Origin: Oscillospiraceae bacterium
GTDB lineage: Bacteria > Bacillota > Clostridia > Oscillospirales > SIG627
Direction of reading: 5' to 3'
DNA length: 64,000 nt
Assembly (NCBI GenBank): GCA_015065265.1
Contig: SVQQ01000007.1
Location: 475-64,474, forward strand
The notes below the pieces were generated by a model. That model saw nothing but the letters and a program-made list of their open reading frames with translations. It had not been told where the DNA came from and made no database searches. How positions within the stretch are numbered: the stretch's first letter is position 1; the number at the start of each line of letters is the position of its first letter. The position numbers were made by a program, and so were the translations under genes. This document shows, piece by piece, positions 3,505 to 63,988 of this stretch.

Positions 3505-4151
3505 CCTTTCTTCGTCTCTTTATGTGCATTTTTGGTTAAAATACAGAAATGAAAAGATTATTAGAATTTTAATAAAACAAAATCATATACAAAAATTGAA
3601 TTTTTTATAGTTTTCTTTATATACAGTTTTCTGCGGAAAGAAATTCAAAGAATTTCTTGCAATTTTATCCAATTTCATTTCTTCGCGTGTTGCTCGGACT
3701 GCTGTACCCTTGTACAGCGACGCCGTCGCACTCCGCGATTTTTCCTCAAAAATGCTCTACTTTTTTGGGCTGTGGGCTGAGATTTAAAGATTAAAAATTT
3801 TATTTTCCCTCAAAGATACTCTCTCACTCTTTTCGGGTTGTGGGCTAATGTCTTTACAATGGATAGCAGAAGACGCGAGTACTAGCAAAAATCGTCTTTA
3901 ATCCTTGTATATAGGCTAATTTCAAATAAATTTATTGAAGATTTGCAAAGCAAATCAACCTTAATTCTGCATTTTGCATTTTGCATTCTGCATTTATAAT
4001 AATTGAAGATTTGCGAAGCAAATCAACCTTAATTTTACATTTGAGCGGGGGATTTTTGTGGTGTAGCGTTTAGCGGAACCTACAAAAATTCAAGCCATAC
4101 AGGGAGCGTAGCCAAGCATTTTGCGAGGCTAAAGCGAGTCGTACGGCATTT
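3505..4151 (+). repeat. Repeat locus A: m1 variant, m3, m4, two m5, m6, two half copies of the palindromic element, m7
   Basis: Direct matches to other loci. Region 3505-3732 resembles 49383-49610 and 4038-4151 resembles 49607-49721. Hairpins lie at 3638-3658 (AAGAAATTC/GAATTTCTT) and 3701-3718 (GCTGTAC/GTACAGC). m6 (3853-3919) resembles 34031-34098 inverted. Confidence 0.9.
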
Positions 4152-4298: not shown

Positions 4299-4880
4299 AT
4301 GAATATAAATATTCCCGAAAATTACCGTGAAGAATTTGACCGTGCGGTAGATTTTGCCTTAGATAAGGAATACTTTACGCCAAAGGAACTTGCAGAATAT
4401 CTTGAAAAAAGTGTTCTGGTTGCCTCTATTATGATAGCCTATATGGAAAAGGCGTCCCTTATCACCGAGGGCAAAAACGACGAGGTGAGGCACACCCTTA
4501 TAACAAAGGGTAATTGGCAGTCAATCGGTGGGAAAATCGAGAACTTCACACCACCCCCAAAGGAAGAAAAGAAGACCTTTACCCCTGTTATTTTAGACAA
4601 GACGGCGGTGGATTTATCAGATATTTTTGAAGAAGCCTTTATTTTTGGAAAAATAGAGGTGTCTTATCTGAATCCAAACCTTTTCTTTTCAGGTGAAGAA
4701 GTGTGTCCCGATGAAATACAAAGTGTTTTAGTGGAAAAAGGCGGACTTTTCAAAAAAGGGCAACTGATTTTCACTCTTCTTTGCGGTGACGAAAAGAAAA
4801 TACCTTTAAAGAAGAAGGAATTTGACAAGGCCTTAAGGCTCAAAGTATTACTTGACGAAAAACTGGGACTCCAATATTGA
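4299..4880 (+). CDS. Hypothetical protein (weak resemblance of the N-terminal region to an FtsK-gamma-like winged helix)
   Basis: ATG at 4299 is preceded by GAAAGGACAAGGT. The ORF-track N-terminal extension overlaps the promoter. I recognise no confident domain. Confidence 0.5.
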   Translation: MNINIPENYREEFDRAVDFALDKEYFTPKELAEYLEKSVLVASIMIAYMEKASLITEGKNDEVRHTLITKGNWQSIGGKIENFTPPPKEEKKTFTPVILDKTAVDLSDIFEEAFIFGKIEVSYLNPNLFFSGEEVCPDEIQSVLVEKGGLFKKGQLIFTLLCGDEKKIPLKKKEFDKALRLKVLLDEKLGLQY

Positions 4881-4958
4881 CAAAATTGTGAATAAACTGT
4901 ATAATAGGACTGAATATATTTAGATGAACGTTTAGCGTTTATCTGAAAGGAGAAATAT

Positions 4959-5333
4959 ATGGCATTTTTTGAAGATTTTGGCAAAAAGTTATCTCAGGCA
5001 GGTCACAGTGCCATGCAGAAGGGCAAGGAACTTGCAGATATTACCAAACTTAACATTTCTGTTTCAGACGAAGAAAGAAAACTTGACGAGATTTACAAGA
5101 AAATCGGCAAACTTTTCGTTGAAAAGGTAGGAGACAGAAGTGAGGGCGACTTTCTTCCTCTTGTGACCGAAGTAAAAGAGGGTCAGAAGAAGATAGAAGA
5201 ACTCAAACAGCAGATAAAGGACATTAAGGGAATTGCAATTTGCCCTAAATGTAATGCTGAACTTCCCGCAGATGCAATTTTCTGCAACGTTTGTGGCGAA
5301 AAACTTCCCGAAAAACAAGAACAAGAACAGTAA
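4959..5333 (+). CDS. Zinc-ribbon domain protein
   Basis: C-terminal CPKCNAELPADAIFCNVCGEKL (CxxC-N10-CxxC). RBS is AAAGGAGA. Confidence 0.6.
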   Translation: MAFFEDFGKKLSQAGHSAMQKGKELADITKLNISVSDEERKLDEIYKKIGKLFVEKVGDRSEGDFLPLVTEVKEGQKKIEELKQQIKDIKGIAICPKCNAELPADAIFCNVCGEKLPEKQEQEQ

Positions 5334-5348
5334 TTAAGGAGACTTTTT

Positions 5349-5771
5349 ATGAAAACTAAACTTGGAATTTCAATCGGCGCTATGGCAGTTATCGTTTATC
5401 TGACAGCACTTTTCGGCGGATACATACCTCTTTTCCTTTTAGCAGGTTACGTTTTACTTGTTGAAGGCGACGAGTGGCTCAAGAGAATGAGCGTAAAGGC
5501 AGTTGTACTTGCTCTTACCGCTTCAACTCTTTATTGGCTCGTTGCTCTTATCCCCGACGTTATCGGTTTGATTAACGACCTTATCGTTATTTTCGACGGC
5601 AAGACAATTTACCTCGAATTCCTAAGCGAACTTGTAAACTTAATCCTTGCAGTTATTTCATTTGCTGAAACCGTCCTCTTCCTTCTTCTTTCGTTCAAGG
5701 CTTTGAAGAAATCTACTCTTTACATTCCCCTTGTTGACCCCATTGTAAACAAATTTTTGTCAGACAAATAA
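5349..5771 (+). CDS. Small integral membrane protein, unknown function
   Basis: Has 3-4 hydrophobic helices and the RBS TAAGGAGA. It lies 15 nt after the previous gene. Confidence 0.55.
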   Translation: MKTKLGISIGAMAVIVYLTALFGGYIPLFLLAGYVLLVEGDEWLKRMSVKAVVLALTASTLYWLVALIPDVIGLINDLIVIFDGKTIYLEFLSELVNLILAVISFAETVLFLLLSFKALKKSTLYIPLVDPIVNKFLSDK

Positions 5772-5790
5772 TTTTTAAGGAGAAAACACA

Positions 5791-14679: not shown

Positions 14680-15642
14680 TTGGCACAAGAAAAGAAACTT
14701 CATCCCCTTGGGGTAGTTTTTATAGTGGCACTTGCTTTGGTAATTGTTACCTTTACAGTGCTTTATACCGCTTTGGGATTGAGATACGTAAATGACAAGA
14801 CCCACGAACTCAAATTTGTAGGGCGTGTGGAAAACGGTGTTGCAGTGTCGGGAAAAATCTACTATTACGACGGTAGAGTCGGAACTCTCGATGCTGAGAA
14901 TAAGACTATTCTCTTTGAAAACGCCGACAAGTATTCAGGTGCACTTTCAGGGTATCTGCCTCACGGAAAAGGAACTCTTACAACTGCCGAGGGAACTATT
15001 TTTGAAGGTGATTTTTACGAAGGTTATTGCACAGGCAACGCTACAATTTCCTACAAAAACGGAGACGTTTATATAGGTGAAGTAAATCACTCCAAACGTG
15101 AAGGCTTCGGCAAATACATAAAGGCAGACGGAACAGTTTATGAGGGCTCTTTCAGAGACGGTGAGAAAAATGGAATCGGAAGAACCGCTTTTACCGATGG
15201 GTCTGTCTATATCGGTCAGTATAAAGACTCTATAAAGGACGGAGTGGGCGCTTATCTTTTTGATGATAGCGACATTTACGTGGGAGAATTCAAAGAGGAC
15301 AAACGTACAGGCAAAGGTATATACGTCTGGTCGAAGAGCGAAGCGTTTACAAGTGAGTTTGATACTCTCTTTAACGTAACTCTTGACGAAAGTTTTGTCT
15401 CTTCCTTTATTTCTTACTTTGAAGGGGACTTTAAAAATCACTTCAAAGATGCAGAATATACCGAGCCCGTTACAGAAAATCCCTTCTTTTTGTCCTTTGA
15501 AAACGTCCTTAAAAGAAGTCAGATTGAAATGTATATCGGTGATTTTTACGAAAATCAACTCACAGGTGAAGGAACTTACAGGTGGCTCTCGGGCAGAGTA
15601 TACTCCGGTACATTCAAAGACGGCGTAATTGTTGAGGAATGA
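14680..15642 (+). CDS. MORN-repeat protein with N-terminal membrane anchor
   Basis: TTG start 9 nt after AAGGAGG. It carries repeated Y(x)G(x)(x)(x)(x)GxxxGxG MORN units, for example YIGEVNHSKREGFGKY and YEGSFRDGEKNGIGRT. Confidence 0.75.
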   Translation: MAQEKKLHPLGVVFIVALALVIVTFTVLYTALGLRYVNDKTHELKFVGRVENGVAVSGKIYYYDGRVGTLDAENKTILFENADKYSGALSGYLPHGKGTLTTAEGTIFEGDFYEGYCTGNATISYKNGDVYIGEVNHSKREGFGKYIKADGTVYEGSFRDGEKNGIGRTAFTDGSVYIGQYKDSIKDGVGAYLFDDSDIYVGEFKEDKRTGKGIYVWSKSEAFTSEFDTLFNVTLDESFVSSFISYFEGDFKNHFKDAEYTEPVTENPFFLSFENVLKRSQIEMYIGDFYENQLTGEGTYRWLSGRVYSGTFKDGVIVEE

Positions 15643-15643
15643 C

Positions 15644-16210
15644 CGTCTTTTTGGTTAAAACAGTTAATATAGTGCAGAATGCAGAATGCAAAATGCTGAA
15701 TTAAGGTTGATTTGCTTCGCAAATCTTCATTCATATACGTTTAGCGGAAAATCCGCTAAACGCACATAAATCAATTCAAATGCGAAGCTTTTGTTCCTTT
15801 ATTCTGCATTTTGCATTTTGCACTCTGCATTTACAACATACACACTAGAATATCAAATATATAAAGCGTAGCCTATGAAAATAGACTACGCTTTACTATG
15901 TCTTTATAATATCATTTCATTTCGGTTTTCACCAAAGAGACGAAAACCTCCGCACACAACCCGAAAAGAAAAGAGTATCTTTGAGGGAAAATCAACGTTT
16001 TACGAAGCCGTCGGCGTACTTACGTACGGCAGTGCGAGTAAACGTTGAAGAAATGAAATTGGAATTGTTCAAAAGAAGTTCGCAGAACTTCTTACATTAG
16101 AAAATTGTTGATTTGAGTGGCAAATACAAAAGAAATAGCCTATAAAAAATAGGCTACACCTTATTAAAAAAACACAACCCCATTTCATTTCGCTTTTCAC
16201 CAAAGAGACG
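15644..16210 (-). repeat. Repeat locus B. From the S41 stop on the minus strand: m1-m2-m3-m4-m5-m1-m2-palindromic element. A truncated + oriented m1 abuts the MORN gene stop.
   Basis: m1 copies lie at 15644-15661 (+), 15914-15942 and 16181-16210 (-). m2 lies at 15862-15895 with a degenerate copy at 16131-16165. m3 is at 16073-16093, m4 at 16003-16060 and m5 at 15943-15993. Confidence 0.9.
15671..15832 (-). mobile_element. ~163-bp palindromic MITE-like element (full copy)
   Basis: Imperfect ~34-bp terminal inverted repeats made of TGCARAA heptamers flank three hairpins: GATTTGC/GCAAATC, GTTTAGCGGA/TCCGCTAAAC and CAAATGC/GCATTTG. Confidence 0.6.
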
Positions 16211-33901: not shown

Positions 33902-34427
33902 AAGTGCAGAATGCAGAATGCAAAATGCAGAATTAAGGAACAAATGCTTCGCATTTGAGTTGATTTTATTATAAGTTTAGCGGAAAATCCGCTAAACACT
34001 TAAAAAACTTAATCATTATAAAAGAGCGTTTTAGTCTATATACAAAGACTAAATCAACTTTTTGACAGTACTCACGTCTTCCGCTTTTTATTGTAAAAAC
34101 TTTAGTTCACAGCCCGTAAAAGCAAGAGTATCTTTGAGGGAAAATCGCTAATATAATTCAGAGTGCAGAATGATGAGTGCAGAGTTAAGGACGATTTGCT
34201 TTGCAAATCTTCAATAATTATAAGTTTAGCGGAAAATCCGCTAAACGCACATAAATCAATTCAAATGCGAAGCATTTGTTCCTTTATTCTGCATTTTGCA
34301 TTTTGCACTCTGCATTACAATATCCACAGAAGAATAGGCAACAAATAAAGCATAGTCCATTTTCATAGACTATGCTTTACTAAATCTCTTATAATGTCAT
34401 TTCATTTCGGTTTTCACCAAAGAGACG
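33902..34427 (-). repeat. Repeat locus C. From the RNHCP gene on the minus strand: m1-m2-palindromic element-m5-m6, then an inverted half element.
   Basis: m1 lies at 34397-34427, m2 at 34346-34379 (AAAGCATAGTC/GACTATGCTTT), m5 at 34101-34148 and m6 at 34031-34098. A half element (+ orientation) lies at 33902-33997. Confidence 0.9.
34157..34316 (-). mobile_element. ~163-bp palindromic MITE-like element (full copy)
   Basis: Near-identical to 57131-57293 and to the reverse complement of 52290-52452. Confidence 0.6.
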
Positions 34428-34751: not shown

Positions 34752-35240
34752 TTATTTATGATACTTTTTTCCGTTTATTATAGTGAAAGCCCTGTAAATC
34801 TGCTCGGACAAAATAACCCGCATAAGTTGATGAGGAAAGGTCATTTTTGAAAAGGAGAGTTTCATATCACACGCCTTTTTAACCGTGTCGGAAAGTCCGT
34901 GAGAAGAGCCTATAATAAAGGTAATCTTTGAAAAACCCCCATCGGCAGAGGCGGTGAAAATACCTGCAAACTCTTCAGAGGTTACCCCATTTCCCTCAAC
35001 ACAGAGGGCTATTTTTTTACTTCTCGGGTCAAGTTTTTCAAGTATCTTTTCCCCCTCTTCCAAAAGAACCTTTTCAATTTGGTTTTTCTGTGGTGAGTCG
35101 GGGAGATTTCCCTCTTTTATAAGTACGTCTTCAAACTTTCCAAAGGCGGAAATACGTTTTGAATATTCAAGGAAGGCTTCTTTTAAATATTTTTCTTTAA
35201 AGTCACCTACGTGTATTATGGTAACGTTCATTTTTGACAC
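34752..35240 (-). CDS. rlmH: 23S rRNA (pseudouridine1915-N3)-methyltransferase
   Basis: 162 aa SPOUT protein with a C-terminus typical of RlmH (FIIGSSHGLS...LSFSKMTFPHQLMRV). Confidence 0.9.
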   Translation of the reverse strand: MSKMNVTIIHVGDFKEKYLKEAFLEYSKRISAFGKFEDVLIKEGNLPDSPQKNQIEKVLLEEGEKILEKLDPRSKKIALCVEGNGVTSEEFAGIFTASADGGFSKITFIIGSSHGLSDTVKKACDMKLSFSKMTFPHQLMRVILSEQIYRAFTIINGKKYHK

Positions 35241-44278: not shown

Positions 44279-45667
44279 TCATTTTCCTGTGAGTTCTCTT
44301 ATCATTGCATTTATTTCAAATTCAAGAGCAGGGTCGGTCTTTATATCTTCATAAATCTTTGAATATGCCGACATAACCGACGTGTGATGCATACCGAAGT
44401 AAGCGCCGATTTCGGTAAGTGACATATTGGTGATAGTTCTCATTATGTAAATTGTAACGTGTCTTGCGTTTGAAATTTTCTTTTCTCTCTTTCTGCCCTT
44501 GATTTCTTCAACGGGAACGGCATATTTTTTGCCTACCATTTCAAAAATTTCGTCAACTGTAATACCTGTAGGTACAGCGTTTGAGAAAAGGTCTTGTAGA
44601 CAGGATTTAACGGAATCCTGATCAAGACGTGTTCCGTTGAGCATACTTGCAGCCCTTAGTCTCTTTATTGCCCCCTCAAGTTGTCTTATGTTGCCTTTTA
44701 AGTTATCCGCAAGGAAAATAAGAATACTGTCGGGAATTGTAATATTCAGGCTTTGTGCCTTGTTTTTGAGTATTGCAAGACGGAGTTCGTAGTCGGGGGG
44801 TTGAACGTCAACGGAAAGACCCCATTCAAAGCGTGTGCGAAGACGTTCTTCAAGGTTAGGAATGTCCTTTGGAGGACGGTCGGAGGCAAGAATTATCTGC
44901 TTTTTGTCCTCGTGTAAGGCGTTGAAGGTGTGGAAGAATTCTTCCTGTGTTGAGGGCTTACCTGCTATAAACTGAATGTCGTCAACCAGAAGTACGTCGG
45001 CTTTTCTGTATCTGTCTCTGAAATATTGCATGGGTATTTTCTTTGACAGAGAGCGTATCAGTTCGTTTGCGAAATCCTCGCCTCGAACGTAAACAACGTT
45101 TGTATTCTCTCGACGGAGAAGTATCTCGTTTGTAATTGCATAAAGAAGGTGAGTTTTACCAAGACCCGAGTCCCCATATATGAAAAGGGGGTTATAGATG
45201 TGGTCGGCATTTTCCGCAATAGCACGACAGGCAGCGTGGGCAAATTTATTGGTATTTCCTACAACGAAGTTGTTAAAAGTATATTGTGGATTGTAGGTCA
45301 TATAAATTTCGCCACCGTCTCCAACTTCTCCCTGAATCCTCTCGTCACTTACCTCGTCGTCAAGTCTGAAAGCGGGACGTTCCACGATATTAACCTTTTC
45401 GTAGTCGGGCCTATCGTCGAAGATGTCAAGGTTGATTGCAACGTTAAAACCGATGACCTCGGCAAGATATTTTTCAAGGGTTGAAAGGTAGCGGGATGAC
45501 ACAATATCTTTTTTAAGTTGTGTCTTTGTATTTATCAGGGCAAAATCGTTGGTGAGTTTCACAAGTTCAAGGTCTCTGAACCACAAATTGTAGGTGGGTT
45601 CTGAGAATTCACCGCTCTCTGCTATTTTTGACAAAACGCAGGACCAAATTTCATTTAACGAATCCAT
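44279..45667 (-). CDS. dnaA: Chromosomal replication initiator DnaA
   Basis: 462 aa with an AAA+ domain (GDSGLGKTHLL) and the C-terminal DNA-binding signature (HTSVMSAYSKI). Confidence 0.97.
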   Translation of the reverse strand: MDSLNEIWSCVLSKIAESGEFSEPTYNLWFRDLELVKLTNDFALINTKTQLKKDIVSSRYLSTLEKYLAEVIGFNVAINLDIFDDRPDYEKVNIVERPAFRLDDEVSDERIQGEVGDGGEIYMTYNPQYTFNNFVVGNTNKFAHAACRAIAENADHIYNPLFIYGDSGLGKTHLLYAITNEILLRRENTNVVYVRGEDFANELIRSLSKKIPMQYFRDRYRKADVLLVDDIQFIAGKPSTQEEFFHTFNALHEDKKQIILASDRPPKDIPNLEERLRTRFEWGLSVDVQPPDYELRLAILKNKAQSLNITIPDSILIFLADNLKGNIRQLEGAIKRLRAASMLNGTRLDQDSVKSCLQDLFSNAVPTGITVDEIFEMVGKKYAVPVEEIKGRKREKKISNARHVTIYIMRTITNMSLTEIGAYFGMHHTSVMSAYSKIYEDIKTDPALEFEINAMIRELTGK

Positions 45668-45720
45668 TTATTTTTCCTTCCAAAAAATTTTCTACATATA
45701 TAATAATATTCAACAGTTAC

Positions 45721-45749
45721 ATTATAACACATTCTCCTCAATCTTGCAA
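45721..45749 (-). promoter_or_regulatory. Candidate sigma-A promoter of dnaA
   Basis: The minus strand reads TTGCAA, a 17-nt spacer, then TGtTATAAT (extended -10). A repeat module m1 starts 11 nt upstream of the -35. Confidence 0.55.
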
Positions 45750-45759
45750 GAGTTAAATT

Positions 45760-46125
45760 CGTATCTTTGGTTAAAAACGAAATGAAAAAACTACTTAATT
45801 TTTAATAGAGTGCACTTTGTTTTTATGGACTATACTTTGCTGTTCTCTTTCTTTTCGGGTTGTGTGCTTAAGTTTTTGTCTTTTTGGTTAAAAACGAAAT
45901 GATATCATATACGTTTAGCGGATTTTCCGCTAAACTTATATAATATTTAATTCAAATGCGAAGCATTTGTTCCTAAATTCAGCATTCAGCATTCTGCACT
46001 CTGCATTTAAGATGTTTAGCGGATTTTCCGCTAAACTTATATAAAAAAGTGCAGTCTATTTTTCATAGGCTACACTTTTTGAAGTTATATTAACTTTTTA
46101 TTTTTATGTTTTCACCAGAAAGACG
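45760..46125. repeat. Repeat locus D. Forward: m1, degenerate m2, m5, m1, half palindromic element, extra GTTTAGCGG hairpin, m2. An inverted m1 abuts the radical-SAM gene stop.
   Basis: m1 copies lie at 45760-45788 and 45877-45903 (+) and at 46095-46125 (-). The hairpin GTTTAGCGGATTTTCCGCTAAAC occurs at 45913-45935 and 46014-46036. A TIR lies at 45970-46008 and m2 at 46044-46080. Confidence 0.85.
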
Positions 46126-48461: not shown

Positions 48462-49094
48462 TTATTCTCCTTTTTCCAGTGTCTCTATTTTCTTTTGTAG
48501 TTTTTCAATTTCCGCCCTCATTCTGCAAAGTTCTTGGGAAACGGGGTCGGGAATGTGTATCTGGTCAAGGTCGGATTGTCTCTGACCGTCCCTTTTTACA
48601 ACTCGTGCAGGAGCGCCAACAGCAGTTGAATCGGGGGGAATTTCGGTAAGAACCACTGACCCTGCGGCAATTTTTGCCCTGTCCCCTACTTTGAAAGGGC
48701 CAAGAACCTTTGCCCCTGCGCCAACGAGGACACCGTTACCTAAGGTGGGATGTCTCTTTCCAATATCTTTTCCCGTACCGCCAAGGGTTACTCCTTGGTA
48801 AAGTGTACATTCATCACCAATTTCGGCAGTTTCGCCAATAACTACCCCTGAACCGTGGTCAATGAACAGCCCTCTGCCAATAGTCGCACCGGGGTGTATT
48901 TCAATGCCTGTAAAAAATCTGCCCGTTTGGGAGATAAGTCTGGCAATAAAGAAAAGTCGGTGTCTATAAAAGAAATTCGCAATTCTGTAATAAATCAAGG
49001 CGTGAAAGCCTGAATACAGGAAGAAAATTTCAAAAATATTTCTCGCGGCGGGGTCGCGGGATTTAATCGACTTCAAATCCTCAAATATCTTCAT
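48462..49094 (-). CDS. cysE: Serine O-acetyltransferase
   Basis: Has hexapeptide repeats and GIEIHPGATIG. Confidence 0.9.
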   Translation of the reverse strand: MKIFEDLKSIKSRDPAARNIFEIFFLYSGFHALIYYRIANFFYRHRLFFIARLISQTGRFFTGIEIHPGATIGRGLFIDHGSGVVIGETAEIGDECTLYQGVTLGGTGKDIGKRHPTLGNGVLVGAGAKVLGPFKVGDRAKIAAGSVVLTEIPPDSTAVGAPARVVKRDGQRQSDLDQIHIPDPVSQELCRMRAEIEKLQKKIETLEKGE

Positions 49095-49101
49095 TTAGGT
49101 T

Positions 49102-49721
49102 CCTTTCTTCGTCTCTTTGGTGAAAAACGAAATGAAATTGGGTATAGAATATAGTAAGGCGTAATCTGTTTTTAAAGTTTATGCTTTGTTTGTCATCTGT
49201 TCCAATATATAATTTTTTCAAAGTAAGAAGTTCTGCGAACTTCTTTTCATCTATTTCAATTTCATTTCTTCGTTTCTTGCTCGGACTACTGTACATAAGT
49301 ACAGTTACGCCTTCGCAATAAACGATTTTCCCTCAAAGATACTCTCTCTTTTCATTTGGGTTATGTGTTGAAGGCTCAAAGTCCTTTCTTCGTCTCTTTG
49401 GTGTGCATTTTTGGTTAAAATACAGAAATGAAAAGGTTATTAAGTTTTTAATAAAACAAAAACCATTCACAAATCTTAACTTTTTCAAAGCATTCTATAT
49501 ATACAGTTTTCTTCGGAAAGAAATTCTACGAATTTCTCTTGAATTTTTTATTTCATTTCTTCGCGTGTTGCTCGGACTGGCGTACCATTGTACGCCGACG
49601 CCTTCGCACTTGAGCGGGGGATTTTTGTGGTGTAGCGTTTAGCGAAACCTACAAAAATTCAAGCCATACAGGGAGCGTAGCCGAGCAGTGTGTGAGGCTA
49701 AAGCGAGTCGGACTGCATTTT
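49102..49721 (+). repeat. Repeat locus E, lying between cysE and its T-box: m1, degenerate m2, m3, m4, m5, then an m1 variant, m3 variant, m4, m7
   Basis: m1 lies at 49110-49138 and 49391-49435, m3 at 49225-49245 and 49519-49537, m4 hairpins at 49288-49305 and 49579-49596, m5 at 49321-49382 and m7 at 49607-49721. Confidence 0.9.
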
Positions 49722-49771: not shown

Positions 49772-49990
49772 AAAAAACCGCCCTCTGTCAAGAGGCGCGG
49801 TTGCGCGGTTCCACTCTTATTTATAACTTTTTCTTTTTTGCTTGTCCCGATTTCTCGGCGGCCGCACTTTCACAAAATAAGCAATAGACGTTCACACCAA
49901 ACACGTCCTCTCTGAATTGCTTTTTTCTTGTTACTCTTGCCAAACAGACTATCCTCTGCCGACTTGCAATATATTAAATTCAAAGTAGTT
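49772..49990 (-). promoter_or_regulatory. T-box riboswitch leader, probably Cys-specific
   Basis: The minus strand reads AAGAG-TGGAACC-GCGC-AACC-GCGC-CTCTT. This is the canonical antiterminator with a 7-nt UGGNACC bulge, where N=A fits the tRNA-Cys discriminator U73. It overlaps the terminator CCGCG(C)CTCT-TGAC-AGAGGGCGG-TTTTTT. Upstream elements are AGAGAG and GGTG. A candidate UGC specifier lies at 49864-49866. Confidence 0.85.
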
Positions 49991-50349
49991 CAGTATGAGT
50001 ATAGCATATAATAATACAAAAAGCAAGTCACAGGAGCACCCTATACTTTATTTTTATTTACGATTATCCGTAATTTGTGTTTTTGGATTTTGGGGCAAAA
50101 AAACACAAGATATAGTGTCTTTCACTTAAAAATCGCTCCCAAAAACTCAACTTCACAGGTCGGCTTTGGCAAATTTGCGGAAGGATGAGCAAAAATTTTT
50201 AGCAAAGTGACAAAAATACAGGCTTGTTTTTGGGCAAAATTAAGAGGATTTGATAATATTTTTACGAAAACACGTAAAATTTAACAAAAAAGCGTCAAGA
50301 TTTTGGTGGAAAATTGACGGAAAAAGACGGGTCAGGAAAATATTGTGAT

Positions 50350-50378
50350 TTGATTTATTTTTGCCTTTATGATAAAAT
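50350..50378 (+). promoter_or_regulatory. Candidate sigma-A promoter of the M23 peptidase gene
   Basis: TTGATT, a 17-nt spacer, then TGaTAAAAT (extended -10). Confidence 0.5.
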
Positions 50379-50419
50379 AACTACACTAAGAAAGATATGC
50401 CATAAAGGAGGTGTTACCC

Positions 50420-52177
50420 ATGGGACAGGATAATCTCGAGAACTCTCAGACAGCGGAGTCTTCAACTATCAACGAAAGTGGAAGAAGACCTGCGAGAAGA
50501 CAGACTTTTACCGGTCTTTACCGTACGTTCAGGCGTTCGGGATTGGGTAAAATCGACTCGGCATTCAACGCTCTTTACATATGCCAGACCAACAGGTGTT
50601 GTCGTGAGAACTTGAATTCCAACAACGTGGGCGACGGATTCTTTAGTCATCCCACAGGTTATTACAGTTCCAAGGCAGAGAGCATCAGACGTGCGGCGAA
50701 AACAAGAACTCTTAGTTTTCTTGAAAGGGTTGCGAAAATTCTTTCCCCTCTTACAAGAAGTGTTGAGAAAAAGGGCAATTCACCTGTAATTTTCGACAAC
50801 AGTGAGGCTTGTCTTAAAAAGGCGCTCTGCTTGTTAAAACGCTCTTCAAAGGCGGTTTGTGTAACAGCTGCTGCACTGCTTTTCGCAATTTCCATTTACA
50901 TAAACAGTCAAAAGAACACAGTTGTGGAAGTTAAGATAGACGGTGTGGTAATTGGCGAAGTTAAGAGTCTTGAAACGGTAGACACCGCGCTCGACCGAGT
51001 TAATGCCAAGATTTCTTCTCTTATGGGCGAGGTTTTCACTTTCCCTCATGAAGTTTCCTTTACTATAAAGAACAAGAACAGTTCCGATTGTATGGATATA
51101 GACAGCGTTTGCGACGTTTTATATACTTACACTGAAGAATACATAACCACAGCCTATGGGTTGTACGTTGATTCTCATCTTATTGCGGTTTTGAATTCCA
51201 GAGACGATATTGTATCCGTCCTTGACACCGTTAAATCCGAGCACATGGCACTGACGGGTGAAGATGAGGATATTGCAAATAATATCGAGATAAAGTATCA
51301 GGAATACGCTAAAAACAGTATTATAGACAAGGAAACACTCGTTTCTATGTTCTCGGTTGTCCCTGAAAAGAAAGAGGATAACGCAAGAGTTGACGCGCTT
51401 CTTTCTTCTAACGAAAACGTTTCCTTTACTCTTGGCGGCGAGATTGTACCCCTCGGACAACGCCTTGCAGAAGCGGTATCCGGCGAAGAAGGACAAAACA
51501 CAATCGTCCTTGACTTTGTAACTTATGAAGAAGTAACTCTTCGAGAGACTGTTCCTTTTGAGACCGAGTATATTACCGACGACACTTATTATACAAGTCA
51601 GAAGGTTGTACAACGTTCAGGTAAAAACGGAAAGGCTAGTAACACTTACCGAGTAAAATACGTAAACGGAGTTGAAGACTCCCGAGTACTTATTAATTCT
51701 ACAACTATTCAGGAAGGACGTTCTTGCATTATAAAGGTTGGAACGAGAATTCTTCCCGAAACTATGACCCTTGATGAAAATGACGGAAAATATATGATAA
51801 ATCCTGTTCCCTTGGCGTATGTCAGCGACTACTTCGGTTGGCGTACACTTAACGGAAGACGTACTTATCACCAAGGTCTTGACCTTGCCGCCATGAAGGG
51901 AACTCCCATTTATGCTGCGGCATCGGGAGAAGTAATTTTGGCAAGTTACAGTTCTTCCTACGGATACGTAGTGAAAATTGAACATGCCGACGGACTTGTT
52001 ACCGTCTATGCCCATTCTTCAAAACTCCTTGTAAAAGTTGGAGACGTAGTTGAACAGGGCGAAGAAATCGCCAGAGTTGGCTCAACAGGTTATTCCTTTG
52101 GATACCACTGTCATTTTGAAGTTATAAAAGACGGAGAAAAGGTTGACCCTGAAGATTATATTTACACTCTTGAGTGA
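50420..52177 (+). CDS. M23 family metallopeptidase with G5 domain and membrane anchor
   Basis: ATG at 50420 lies 8 nt after AAGGAGG; the ORF-track GTG at 50411 is inside the RBS. The G5-like segment is QKVVQRSGKNGKASNTYRVKYVNG. The M23 motifs are HQGLDLAA...HFEV. Confidence 0.8.
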   Translation: MGQDNLENSQTAESSTINESGRRPARRQTFTGLYRTFRRSGLGKIDSAFNALYICQTNRCCRENLNSNNVGDGFFSHPTGYYSSKAESIRRAAKTRTLSFLERVAKILSPLTRSVEKKGNSPVIFDNSEACLKKALCLLKRSSKAVCVTAAALLFAISIYINSQKNTVVEVKIDGVVIGEVKSLETVDTALDRVNAKISSLMGEVFTFPHEVSFTIKNKNSSDCMDIDSVCDVLYTYTEEYITTAYGLYVDSHLIAVLNSRDDIVSVLDTVKSEHMALTGEDEDIANNIEIKYQEYAKNSIIDKETLVSMFSVVPEKKEDNARVDALLSSNENVSFTLGGEIVPLGQRLAEAVSGEEGQNTIVLDFVTYEEVTLRETVPFETEYITDDTYYTSQKVVQRSGKNGKASNTYRVKYVNGVEDSRVLINSTTIQEGRSCIIKVGTRILPETMTLDENDGKYMINPVPLAYVSDYFGWRTLNGRRTYHQGLDLAAMKGTPIYAAASGEVILASYSSSYGYVVKIEHADGLVTVYAHSSKLLVKVGDVVEQGEEIARVGSTGYSFGYHCHFEVIKDGEKVDPEDYIYTLE

Positions 52178-52178
52178 T

Positions 52179-52596
52179 TGTCTCTTTGGTGAAAATACAG
52201 AAATGAAATGATATTATAAAGACATAGTAAAGCGTAGTCTTTAAAAAAGGCTACGCTTTATATATTTGATATTCTAGTGTGTATGTTGTAAATGCAGAGT
52301 GCAAAATGCAAAATGCAGAATAAAGGAACAAATGCTTCGCATTTGAGTTAATTTTATTATACGTTTAGCGGATTTTCCGCTAAACTTATAATTATTGAAG
52401 ATTTGCAAAGCAAATCAACCTTAATTCTGCACTCATCATTCTGCACTCTGAATTATATTAGCGATTTTCCCTCAAAGATACTCTTCTCTTTTCATTTAGG
52501 CTGTGTGTTGAAAGTTTGAGTCTCTTTGGCTAAAACCGAAATGAAATTATAATAAATAGTAAAGCATAGTCTATAAAAATAGGCTATGCTTTATAT
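52179..52596 (+). repeat. Repeat locus F: m1-m2-palindromic element-m5-m1-m2, starting 2 nt after the M23 stop
   Basis: m1 lies at 52179-52209 and 52518-52547, m2 at 52228-52260 and 52560-52593, and m5 at 52461-52517. Confidence 0.9.
52290..52452 (+). mobile_element. ~163-bp palindromic MITE-like element (full copy, reference orientation)
   Basis: The left TIR is TGCAGAGTGCAAAATGCAAAATGCAGAATAAAGG. The right TIR, reverse-complemented, is TTCAGAGTGCAGAATGATGAGTGCAGAATTAAGG, matching at 27 of 34 positions. Three internal hairpins are centred on GTTTAGCGGATTTTCCGCTAAAC. Confidence 0.6.
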
Positions 52597-56175: not shown

Positions 56176-56303
56176 TTTAGCGGAAAATCCGCTAAACACG
56201 GAGAATGTTTTTTCAAAAAAGAGACAAAAAAGTATAGCCTGTTTATATAGGCTATACTTTTTAAAATCTAAATAAACTTTTTTAGGCTTTAACCAAAGAG
56301 ACG
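56176..56303 (-). repeat. Repeat locus H (minimal): GTTTAGCGG-type hairpin, m2, partial m1 abutting the mgtC stop
   Basis: TTTAGCGGAAAATCCGCTAAA lies at 56176-56196. The m2 variant AAAAAGTATAGCCT/AGGCTATACTTTTT lies at 56227-56265. The m1 remnant GGCTTTAACCAAAGAGACG lies at 56285-56303. Confidence 0.8.
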
Positions 56304-57005: not shown

Positions 57006-57102
57006 TTCTGCTTTCTCCTTTTAAAGTTTTATACATTGTAACATAAAAGAAAGCAAAATACAAGTGTTAAATCTATGTAAAATTATTTTTTTGTTATTTT
57101 TG

Positions 57103-57942
57103 TATTTTTGAGGGAAAATCGCTAATATAATTCAGAGTGCAGAATGATGAGTGCAGAATTAAGGTTGATTTGCTTTGCAAATCTTCAATAATTATAAGTT
57201 TAGCGGAAAATCCGCTAAACTTATATAAAAACCAACTCAAATGCGAAGCATTTGTTCCTTTATTCTGCATTTTGCATTTTGCACTCTGCATTTACAACAT
57301 ACACACTAGAATATCAAATATATAAAGCGTAGCATATTTTCATAAGCTACGCTTTACTAAATCTTTATACTAACTTTTCATTTCTGTATTTTCACCAAAG
57401 AGACGAAAATTTAAGCACACAGCCCGAAAAGAGAAGAGTATCTTTGAGGGAAAATCGCGGAGTGCGAAGGCGTCGGCGTACAATGGTACGCCAGTCCGAG
57501 CAACACGCGAAGAAATGAAATTGGAATAATTAAAAAGAAGTTCGTGAGAACTTCTTACATTAAAAGAGTTGTACAAAGAAAAAGAAAATAAATAAAGCGT
57601 AGCCTTTTTTAAAGACTACGCTTTACTATGTCTTTATAATATCATTTCATTTCTGTATTTTCACCAAAAAGACGAAAATTTAAGCACACAGTTTAAATGA
57701 AAAGAGAGAGTATTTTTGAGGGAAAATTCGCAATCCCGAAGCCCCGTCGCTGTACTTACGTACAGCAGTGCGAGGGAGGGCGAAAGAAATGAAAATAAAT
57801 CAAGAAAATTTCGAAGAAATTTTTTCATCAGAAGAAGTGTAAAATAACACAAAAAAACAAATAAAGCGTAGCATATTTTCATAAGCTACGCTTTACTAAA
57901 TCTTTATACTAACTTTTCATTTCGGTTTTAACCAAAAAGACG
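57103..57942 (-). repeat. Repeat locus G. From the fba stop on the minus strand: two full m1-m2-m3-m4-m5 units, then m1-m2-palindromic element-m5(partial).
   Basis: m1 copies lie at 57915-57942, 57641-57674 and 57375-57405, a period of about 270 bp. m2 lies at 57862-57895, 57593-57625 and 57323-57356. m4 hairpins lie at 57749-57766 and 57475-57492. m3 lies at 57802-57826 and 57535-57556. Confidence 0.92.
57131..57293 (-). mobile_element. ~163-bp palindromic MITE-like element (full copy)
   Basis: About 95% identical by eye to the reverse complement of 52290-52452. Confidence 0.6.
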
Positions 57943-63690: not shown

Positions 63691-63806
<116 letters not shown>

Positions 63807-63814
63807 TTTTATAT

Positions 63815-63840
63815 TCCTCCTTAGCTCAGTCGGTAGAGCG
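63815..63840 (+). pseudogene. Orphan 5' fragment of tRNA-Asn (acceptor arm plus D arm only)
   Basis: TCCTCCTTAGCTCAGTCGGTAGAGCG is identical to the first 26 nt of the tRNA at 63913. The downstream sequence cannot form anticodon or T arms. Confidence 0.6.
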
Positions 63841-63912
63841 ATTGAAAGCAAATAAACCGGAAAATTAGCTGCTAAAGAGGAGTCAAAAATAAATGCTGAT
63901 TTTCCACAATAT

Positions 63913-63988
<76 letters not shown>

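Follow-up and report, generated by a model that had tools for sequence, protein, structure and literature searches.

A heptamer-armed palindrome nested in mosaic repeats of a gut Oscillospiraceae genome as a likely ORF-less relative of PF05635-bearing elements

Introduction

Proteins of the S23p family (PF05635) are encoded within some of the intervening sequences (IVSs) that are found in 23S rRNA, and the Xanthomonas homologue was shown to be a pentamer of four-helix bundles (PMC4990558). In Coxiella, the IVS measures 428-444 nt, contains an S23p ORF and ends in a 28-bp stem that RNase III cleaves (PMC4990558). PF05635 is also related to Avd, a protein of diversity-generating retroelements (PMC10053308). 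Two other kinds of described repeats are of interest here: the TAACTGA heptamer repeats, which mostly occur ahead of start codons as single direct arrays, only one inverted case being reported (PMC4679880), and the Gut-1 motif, which is known from gut metagenomes only (PMC2864571; Weinberg et al. 2010).

The DNA analysed here (the window) is a stretch of 64,000 nucleotides from an Oscillospiraceae bacterium with a genome of 1.65 Mb (G000), and it belongs to a 65-kb contig (C26) corresponding to the origin region. Other genomes that were compared are labelled G0nn and loci or contigs Lnnn, L132 being the locus on contig C23 of G000 and L174 a locus of G013. A preliminary description of the window, made from its letters, had reported a 163-bp palindromic, MITE-like element ending in inverted repeats built from TGCARAA heptamers (PAL). 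To our knowledge, S23p/PF05635 proteins and rRNA IVSs have been left without any known function or mode of spread for about 30 years; the comparison of PAL with its relatives, described below, brings the two subjects together.

Results

The palindrome folds and recurs well beyond chance

The four full copies and the four partial copies of PAL that had been listed were all recovered, the former with a mean column identity of 94% in an alignment and the latter as members of repeat families D1, D3 and D15 (Table 1). TGCARAA heptamers sit where they had been placed (at 15673, 15680 and 15687, for example), and the central hairpin (CEN) does have an exact 10-bp stem with a 3-nt loop, which occurs alone at 46015-46035 and 56176-56196 and in 28 exact copies across G000. 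The PAL copies at 52290 and 57131 differ solely in a short segment between hairpin a and the central hairpin. The picture of a non-coding, multi-copy palindrome with inverted heptamer arms around three inner hairpins is therefore one that we can endorse. Two of its figures had to be revised. The ends were said to match at 27 of 34 positions, which is approximate only: an ungapped comparison of the 34-nt ends gives 9/34, because the register shifts, and the predicted fold pairs about 25 positions with bulges. The boundaries given were also too narrow, as the similarity runs on for about 110 bp to the left (52180-52289, with GS, AM, TER and the linker) and for about 30-65 bp to the right (the PC module).

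The predicted fold of the reference copy consists of a long outer arm-arm stem around the three hairpins, with an energy of -64.2 kcal/mol compared to -27.7 kcal/mol for shuffled sequences (z = -10.4 as RNA and -8.0 as DNA). Arrays of at least three TGCARAA units were counted 21 times in G000, 19 of them outside long ORFs, and 0-1 times in shuffled genomes. Since the array count and the fold both lie far above what shuffling yields, the palindrome is a real feature, well beyond chance. It matched no Rfam family at gathering or permissive thresholds. None of the PAL copies is located in 23S rRNA: all are intergenic, their neighbours are protein-coding or tRNA genes and the window contains no 23S rRNA gene. 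The end of the window does hold a 5S rRNA gene and at least one tRNA gene (63691-63985), with no 23S rRNA gene upstream in the window and with long ORFs occupying the preceding 3 kb. Elsewhere in G000, a cluster of seven solo CEN hairpins and arm fragments was seen within about 2.2 kb (G000:C7:13.7-15.9 kb).

Table 1. Coordinates of the palindrome, of the modules around it and of related features (window positions unless a contig or locus is named)
Feature	Position	Strand	Remarks
PAL reference copy, 163 bp	52290-52452	+	palindrome
Left arm of reference	52290-52323	+	
Hairpin a of reference	52329-52345	+	
Central hairpin (CEN) of reference	52363-52385	+	
Hairpin b of reference	52400-52416	+	
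Right arm of reference	52419-52452	+	
PAL full copy 2	57131-57293	-	97% identity to reference; inverted relative to it
PAL full copy 3	34157-34316	-	94%
PAL full copy 4	15671-15832	-	88%
Half PAL (left arm, hairpin a, CEN)	33902-33997	+	91% to 52290-52385; family D15
Half PAL (CEN, hairpin a, left arm)	45911-46008	-	upstream of dnaA; families D3 and D6
Solo CEN	46014-46036		after half PAL 45911-46008
PAL fragment pair	3931-4037	+	hairpin b and right arm, 3931-3995; hairpin b alone, 3996-4037; family D1
Solo CEN	56176-56196		one of the 28 exact genome copies
GS			16-nt motif, begins GTCTCTTTGG
AM			GAAATGAAA
TER	52227-52261 (reference block)		terminator-like hairpin, 16-17 bp
Linker			~20 nt, between TER and PAL
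PC			imperfect reverse complement of GS; usually follows PAL
Composite block	52180-52481	+	GS, AM, TER, linker, PAL, start of PC
Inverted partner block	57102-57404	-	94.7% identity over 304 bp to 52180-52481
Tandem mosaic array	57316-57940	-	~270-bp units (GS-AM-TER-X-PC), between aldolase gene and PAL copy; family D5
Probably inverted segment, ~4.6-4.8 kb	52482-57101		genes: polysaccharide deacetylase, U32 peptidase, Maf, MgtC
ORF-bearing element in G000 (L132)	C23, ~17.97-18.39 kb		
tRNA-adjoining PF05635 loci	L132:1876-1955; L133:2086-2169; L134:2082-2154; L135:2028-2100		

The dispersed unit is a mosaic of about 300 bp

In G000, PAL forms part of a larger mosaic repeat of about 300 bp, within which it is nested as a single module. 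Eight full or near-full PAL copies exist in this genome, half of them within the window, and every one is preceded by the series GS-AM-TER-linker in one orientation, with the A-rich arm of PAL facing the upstream gene in every full copy; a 163-bp unit standing outside the larger block was found nowhere in G000. The preliminary description had stated that copies all embedded identically in larger duplicated segments would speak against its reading, and this is largely what G000 displays (8/8 full copies behind the same block, in the same orientation). Therefore, the unit that is dispersed in this genome is the composite of about 300 bp and not the 163-bp palindrome.

The mosaic itself varies in a modular manner. 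What lies to the left of GS depends on the copy and is either the stop codon of a gene or the tail of a previous unit; in the reference block, GS begins 2 nt past the stop codon of an M23 peptidase gene. G000 has approximately 55-60 GS-AM copies. In about half of them, the stop codon of a same-strand long ORF lies 1-6 nt ahead of GS; most others belong to tandem arrays that repeat every ~270 bp, in which they are the second or third unit. The slot between TER and PC holds either PAL or an alternative hairpin module (X), and the GS and PC ends of the mosaic are inverted repeats of each other. Behind the PAL copy at 15671, PC is replaced by an inverted GS module that abuts the stop codon of a convergent gene (14680-15642). 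All GS-AM copies (52180-52212 in the reference block) read GGTGA, then 8-11 nt, then ATG AAA TGA, which looks like a Shine-Dalgarno sequence with a mini-ORF of two codons behind it. C26 carries roughly 30% of the GS-AM modules of G000. Repeat modules also fill the stretch (49108-49720) between the gene at 48462-49094 and a sub-threshold match to a T-box leader lying about 700 bp upstream of that gene (49788-49954, minus strand; 59.9 bits for a gathering threshold of 93).

Two inverted blocks probably recombined and inverted the DNA between them

Judging from assemblies of other samples, the segment enclosed by the two inverted copies of the block was probably inverted. One contig (L014) joins 50078-52481 (+) directly to 57404-53804 (-), so that the M23 peptidase gene and mgtC become neighbours; two more contigs resemble it, and other samples keep the gene order of the window. 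The crossover falls inside a 100-bp stretch that is identical in both blocks and that comprises the linker, the left arm and hairpin a. Neither of the flanking identical stretches reaches the assembler k of 141, which argues against a graph artefact. Since the reciprocal junction was looked for and not found, we rate this inversion, which rests on three assembled contigs, as no more than probable, with homologous recombination between the inverted copies as its simplest cause. The earlier proposal of a recent spread or gene conversion between the copies at 52290 and 57131 fits these data, in that both copies appear to be recombined with the intervening segment inverted. A different gene order in another contig (L138) turned out to be uninformative, its break being located within mgtC and not at a repeat.

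No transposase goes with the palindrome

The preliminary description had seen no cognate transposase in the window and had proposed a search of the genome; this search again yielded none. The single Y1 transposase gene of G000 (PF01797; C3:5180-5509) is that of an ordinary IS200-like element, the ends of which show no similarity to any of the modules, so that its subterminal hairpins are unlike those of PAL and this element could be excluded as the source of a cognate enzyme. As the flanks of the PF01797 gene share nothing with the modules, it does not resemble a RAYT gene either; a partial second copy is found nearby. The two copies of this IS200-type element (G000:C3:1286-1562 and 4830-5779; 87% over 290 bp) are about 3.5 kb apart and the C-terminus of the TnpA looks atypical. 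Neither TnpB nor a reverse transcriptase is present in G000. Among about 110 loci with arm pairs, not one encloses a transposase, the sole recurrent enclosed ORF being PF05635. An apparent 5.2-kb "autonomous element" in L042/L096 was resolved as two separate small palindromes beside terminators.

Full-size relatives carry a PF05635 gene between the same arms

Inverted TGCARAA arms were found to enclose PF05635 ORFs of 115-118 aa at five loci: L132 in G000 itself, L066, L078, L094 and L174 in G013. The ORF at L132 scores 101 bits against PF05635 (cut-off 33.8) and matches PDB entry 2RLD with E = 5e-39, and the right arm of this element (C23:18361-18391) is 93.5% identical to a PAL arm over 31 nt. 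Full-size members of the family measure about 420-500 bp, with an ORF of 112-124 aa, and are laid out as an A-rich heptamer arm, a TWAAGG junction that overlaps the ribosome-binding region, a small hairpin, the PF05635 gene, a second small hairpin, a CCWTAA junction and the inverted arm, the A-rich arm being always 5' of the ORF. L094 and L174 follow this scheme with CCTTAA or CGATAA as the second junction, and the second hairpin and junction of L174 are visibly homologous to hairpin b of PAL and its junction. Arms consist of 4-5 heptamers (28-35 nt) on ORF-bearing and ORF-less forms alike, matching the stem of about 28 bp that characterises IVSs. The window copies of PAL lack the ORF and have the unrelated CEN hairpin in place of the gene. 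Considering that arms, junctions and hairpin b are shared, the element of the window is best read as an ORF-less derivative of the PF05635-bearing form, which these likenesses make its most likely origin.

The distribution of the gene was then compared with that of the palindrome. PF05635 is multi-copy in 15 of 16 genomes of the genus (1-8 copies each) versus 1 of 14 controls, and orthologues with at least 70% identity were found only in PAL-rich genomes. In G010 and G011, whose completeness is 84% and 89%, ORF-less copies are abundant and a gene of the TGCARAA clade was not found. Two architectures could be distinguished: in type A, the PF05635 gene is preceded by a palindromic "comb", lying wholly upstream, in which small hairpins alternate with a 7-8-nt motif, and in type B contiguous heptamer arms flank the gene. 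The protein tree separates A from B and unites the TGCARAA-armed genes of five genomes in one clade, with genes armed by TTGAAAA/AATTGAA and by AATGAAT in neighbouring clades. A strict recognition code from protein to heptamer is weakened by the type B locus L158 (G002:C27:74195-74509), both arms of which are of the AGAAATT/ATGAGAA type: its protein is 54-67% identical to the TGCARAA clade, as close as the members of that clade are to each other; here the arm motif has switched and the protein has not changed to a similar extent. Of the six PF05635 genes in G000, four adjoin tRNA genes, with a heptamer or comb array between the tRNA gene (and its terminator) and the PF05635 gene. Type A combs with an ATATCAC motif at locus L131 of G000 (484-665 and 1252-1457) gave sub-threshold matches of 35-42 bits to Gut-1 (RF01706; gathering threshold 50), the best with 42.3 bits and E = 3e-5; for the PAL copies there was no match up to E = 1. 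The comb matches suggest that Gut-1, as published, represents one of the subfamilies of type A comb arrays.

The family extends to many gut Clostridia and occupies some orthologous sites

Among 15 other species of the genus, nine match the palindrome query, for the most part via its 60-nt half, and there the palindrome stands alone, without GS, AM or TER. Searches with the arm and its junction motif retrieved more than 113 stretches of gut Clostridia MAGs, obtained from ruminants, birds and humans and assigned to Acutalibacteraceae, Oscillospiraceae, Ca. Fimenecus, Faecousia and other groups, and one viral contig only; the family is dispersed across many gut Oscillospirales genomes. What is conserved in the MAG copies is the arms (4-6 heptamers) and the junctions TWAAGG and CCWTAA, whereas the length of the interior ranges from about 40 to 230 bp. 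A small hairpin usually lies beside each arm, and these arm-proximal hairpins beat shuffled sequences only modestly (mean z of -1.1 and -1.6). No account of this family was found in the literature on MITEs in Oscillospiraceae, PF05635 or TIGR02436.

Orthologous intergenic regions can be occupied or empty. Behind the conserved aldolase gene fba, the site is empty in G006 and G003, where it consists of a brief spacer plus a terminator. In G013 and G014, a 130-bp palindrome with the same architecture sits between the stop codon and the terminator, and in G000 the site is filled by three mosaic units and PAL. The 130-bp palindrome has TGAATAW arms and a hairpin b that is clearly related to that of PAL. 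Upstream of dnaA (44279-45667, minus strand), the intergenic region of G000 (45667-46104) contains two CEN, a half-palindrome, two GS and two AM, and G000 is the only one of 11 species with usable flanks to have such modules there, none of the 10 other species of the genus carrying them; DnaA-box-like sites are few upstream of dnaA in all of these species. Both contrasts are between species, and the fba flanks are too diverged to tell insertion from deletion. Within the species, the copy at 52290 is present in 23 of 23 contigs from other samples, and no strain-level presence/absence polymorphism was detected for the window copies; a protein sought for such strain comparisons (34752-35240) had no database record. 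The flanks of eight genomic copies and of about 26 copies from other MAGs showed no consistent target-site duplication, empty and filled sites being too diverged for a base-level alignment.

The two arms change together without element-specific pairing

As in MITEs, terminal inverted repeats are present, the heptamer arms pairing at about 25 positions of the fold, though their complementarity is not specific to each element: it amounts to 0.706 within elements versus 0.705 between elements, and 2394 of 5000 permutations reach the observed value. This leads us to reject element-specific compensatory pairing and means that the stem is a by-product of the shared heptamer. Across heptamer subfamilies, both arms always change together. 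Such a paired change without specific complementarity points to concerted evolution and to a constraint on the 7-nt period rather than to base-pair compensation.

Discussion

Altogether, we propose that PAL, ORF-less and MITE-like, derives from a family of small palindromic elements of gut Oscillospirales and was nested and multiplied within a mosaic repeat, and we assign this reading a probability of roughly 0.6. According to this model, a selfish, IVS-like palindromic element would have lost its PF05635 gene, the CEN hairpin taking its place, and the resulting ORF-less palindrome would have ended up inside a mosaic repeat that carries a terminator and docks on stop codons. The palindrome would then have multiplied locally as part of the mosaic, eight of the 21 heptamer arrays being located on the origin-region contig. 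The family as a whole may spread, or may once have spread, at the DNA level without a classical transposase, and its arms might be kept alike by concerted evolution, through slippage and the templating of one arm from the other. By analogy with rRNA intervening sequences, the transcribed arm stem is a putative RNase III-type substrate, and a gene for RNase III is present in G000. The PF05635 protein, as a candidate partner, may act on the heptamer arrays. The copies of the window itself lead to a more ordinary conclusion, which is that they are decayed, nested repeat modules; as PAL stands just past the TER hairpin, its main effect at present is probably that of a strong hairpin and of a substrate for homologous recombination.

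The MITE-like status given to the element in the preliminary description can thus be kept in part: the relation of PAL to a larger ORF-bearing element is roughly that of a MITE to its parent, and orthologous sites are occupied or empty, but no transposase is linked to it and an independent insertion of 163 bp finds no support here. A MITE in the classical sense, that is an IS deletion derivative mobilised in trans by a DDE or Y1 transposase recognising the heptamer ends, would explain the inverted ends, the multiple intergenic copies and the variable interior, and G000 does have one Y1 transposase. We nevertheless consider it quite improbable, given that this enzyme is that of an ordinary IS200, which has hairpins of its own and does not resemble the modules, that TnpB is missing, that about 110 loci with arms enclose no transposase and recurrently enclose only PF05635, that no target-site duplication was seen and that the 163-bp unit never leaves the larger block in G000. 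It is less of a stretch, if still unlikely, that PAL is a structured RNA or transcription signal selected by the host (bidirectional terminator, insulator, stabiliser of mRNA 3' ends or RNase III site) and repeated for its usefulness rather than its mobility. The very stable fold would suit this function, the inner hairpins and the adjacent TER score as terminator-like, relatives are found between a stop codon and a terminator or between convergent terminators, the orientation to the upstream gene is constant in all eight copies, and REP, BOX and SPRITE elements behave similarly. What weighs against it is that the arms display no element-specific compensatory change, that Rfam gave no match, that a real terminator (TER) already precedes PAL here, that an ORF-bearing parent form exists and that the element is missing at orthologous sites in most related species, from which it follows that no site needs it.

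The concentration of heptamer arrays around the origin, where C26, the dnaA contig, has eight of the 21 and about 15 times the density of the remaining genome, brings to mind iterons or centromere-like heptads, to which a nucleoid or partition protein would bind as double-stranded DNA. The omega protein of plasmid pSM19035 recognises its sites as contiguous 7-bp heptads. We find such a role hardly credible: in G010 the copies are scattered over many contigs with one match only on the dnaA contig, of 11 species, G000 alone has modules close to dnaA, subfamilies of one and the same architecture have different heptamers, and local amplification of the mosaic explains the cluster more simply. An origin-linked, centromere-like function is thus left unsupported, as G010 lacks the bias and the modules next to dnaA exist in G000 only.

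Coming back to the derivation from PF05635-bearing elements, a broader extension of it can be formulated, which we offer as a speculation with the odds well against it. PF05635 pentamers (S23p/Avd) might be trans-acting partners of palindromic mobile elements that have no transposase: they would read arrays of strictly 7-nt period, each subunit taking up about one heptad (a pentamer facing arms of 4-5 heptads), and, by way of a hairpin or cruciform intermediate, would help the element to be copied or maintained. The ORF-less copies, such as those of the window, would then ride along as MITE-like passengers, and rRNA intervening sequences would be the special case that landed in 23S rRNA. In any event, finding a PF05635 gene with an IVS-type inverted stem as a multi-copy, dispersed intergenic element, together with gene-less derivatives and heptamer subfamilies, provides a comparative system for movement and protein binding. 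There is a practical side as well: the repeats take up entire intergenic regions, interrupt metagenome assemblies and serve as substrates for recombination close to the replication origin, with consequences for MAG quality and the inference of synteny in gut Oscillospirales.

Several known systems resemble parts of what is described here. Like the Correia/NEMIS elements of Neisseria and the RUP elements of pneumococci, PAL is short, non-coding, multi-copy and intergenic, has inverted ends and appears as a deletion derivative of a longer ORF-bearing form; it differs from these MITEs in that its parent has no transposase, in that no target-site duplication was found and in its arms of 7-nt repeats, which vary by subfamily. 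With REP/BIME of E. coli and BOX/SPRITE of pneumococci it shares a likeness in organisation only, as an interchangeable module of a mosaic that has a terminator hairpin and abuts stop codons, whereas G000 has no RAYT-type gene flanked by the repeats. Cyanobacterial STRR heptamers are intergenic tandem 7-nt units too, patchily distributed among taxa and with no known mechanism of spread. The same is true of the TAACTGA repeats of Beggiatoaceae, Cyanobacteria and Bacteroidetes, the description of which does not speak of genes for four-helix bundles or of intervening sequences (PMC4679880).

The 23S rRNA intervening sequences with S23p of Coxiella burnetii, Leptospira and Xanthomonas (PMC4990558) are matched by the full-size relatives in size (about 420-500 bp), in their stem of about 28-35 bp and in their PF05635 ORF. 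The full-size relatives differ from them in lying between protein-coding or tRNA genes instead of in helix 25 or 45 of 23S rRNA and in having arms made of tandem heptamers, and the copies of the window differ further in having kept the palindrome without the ORF.
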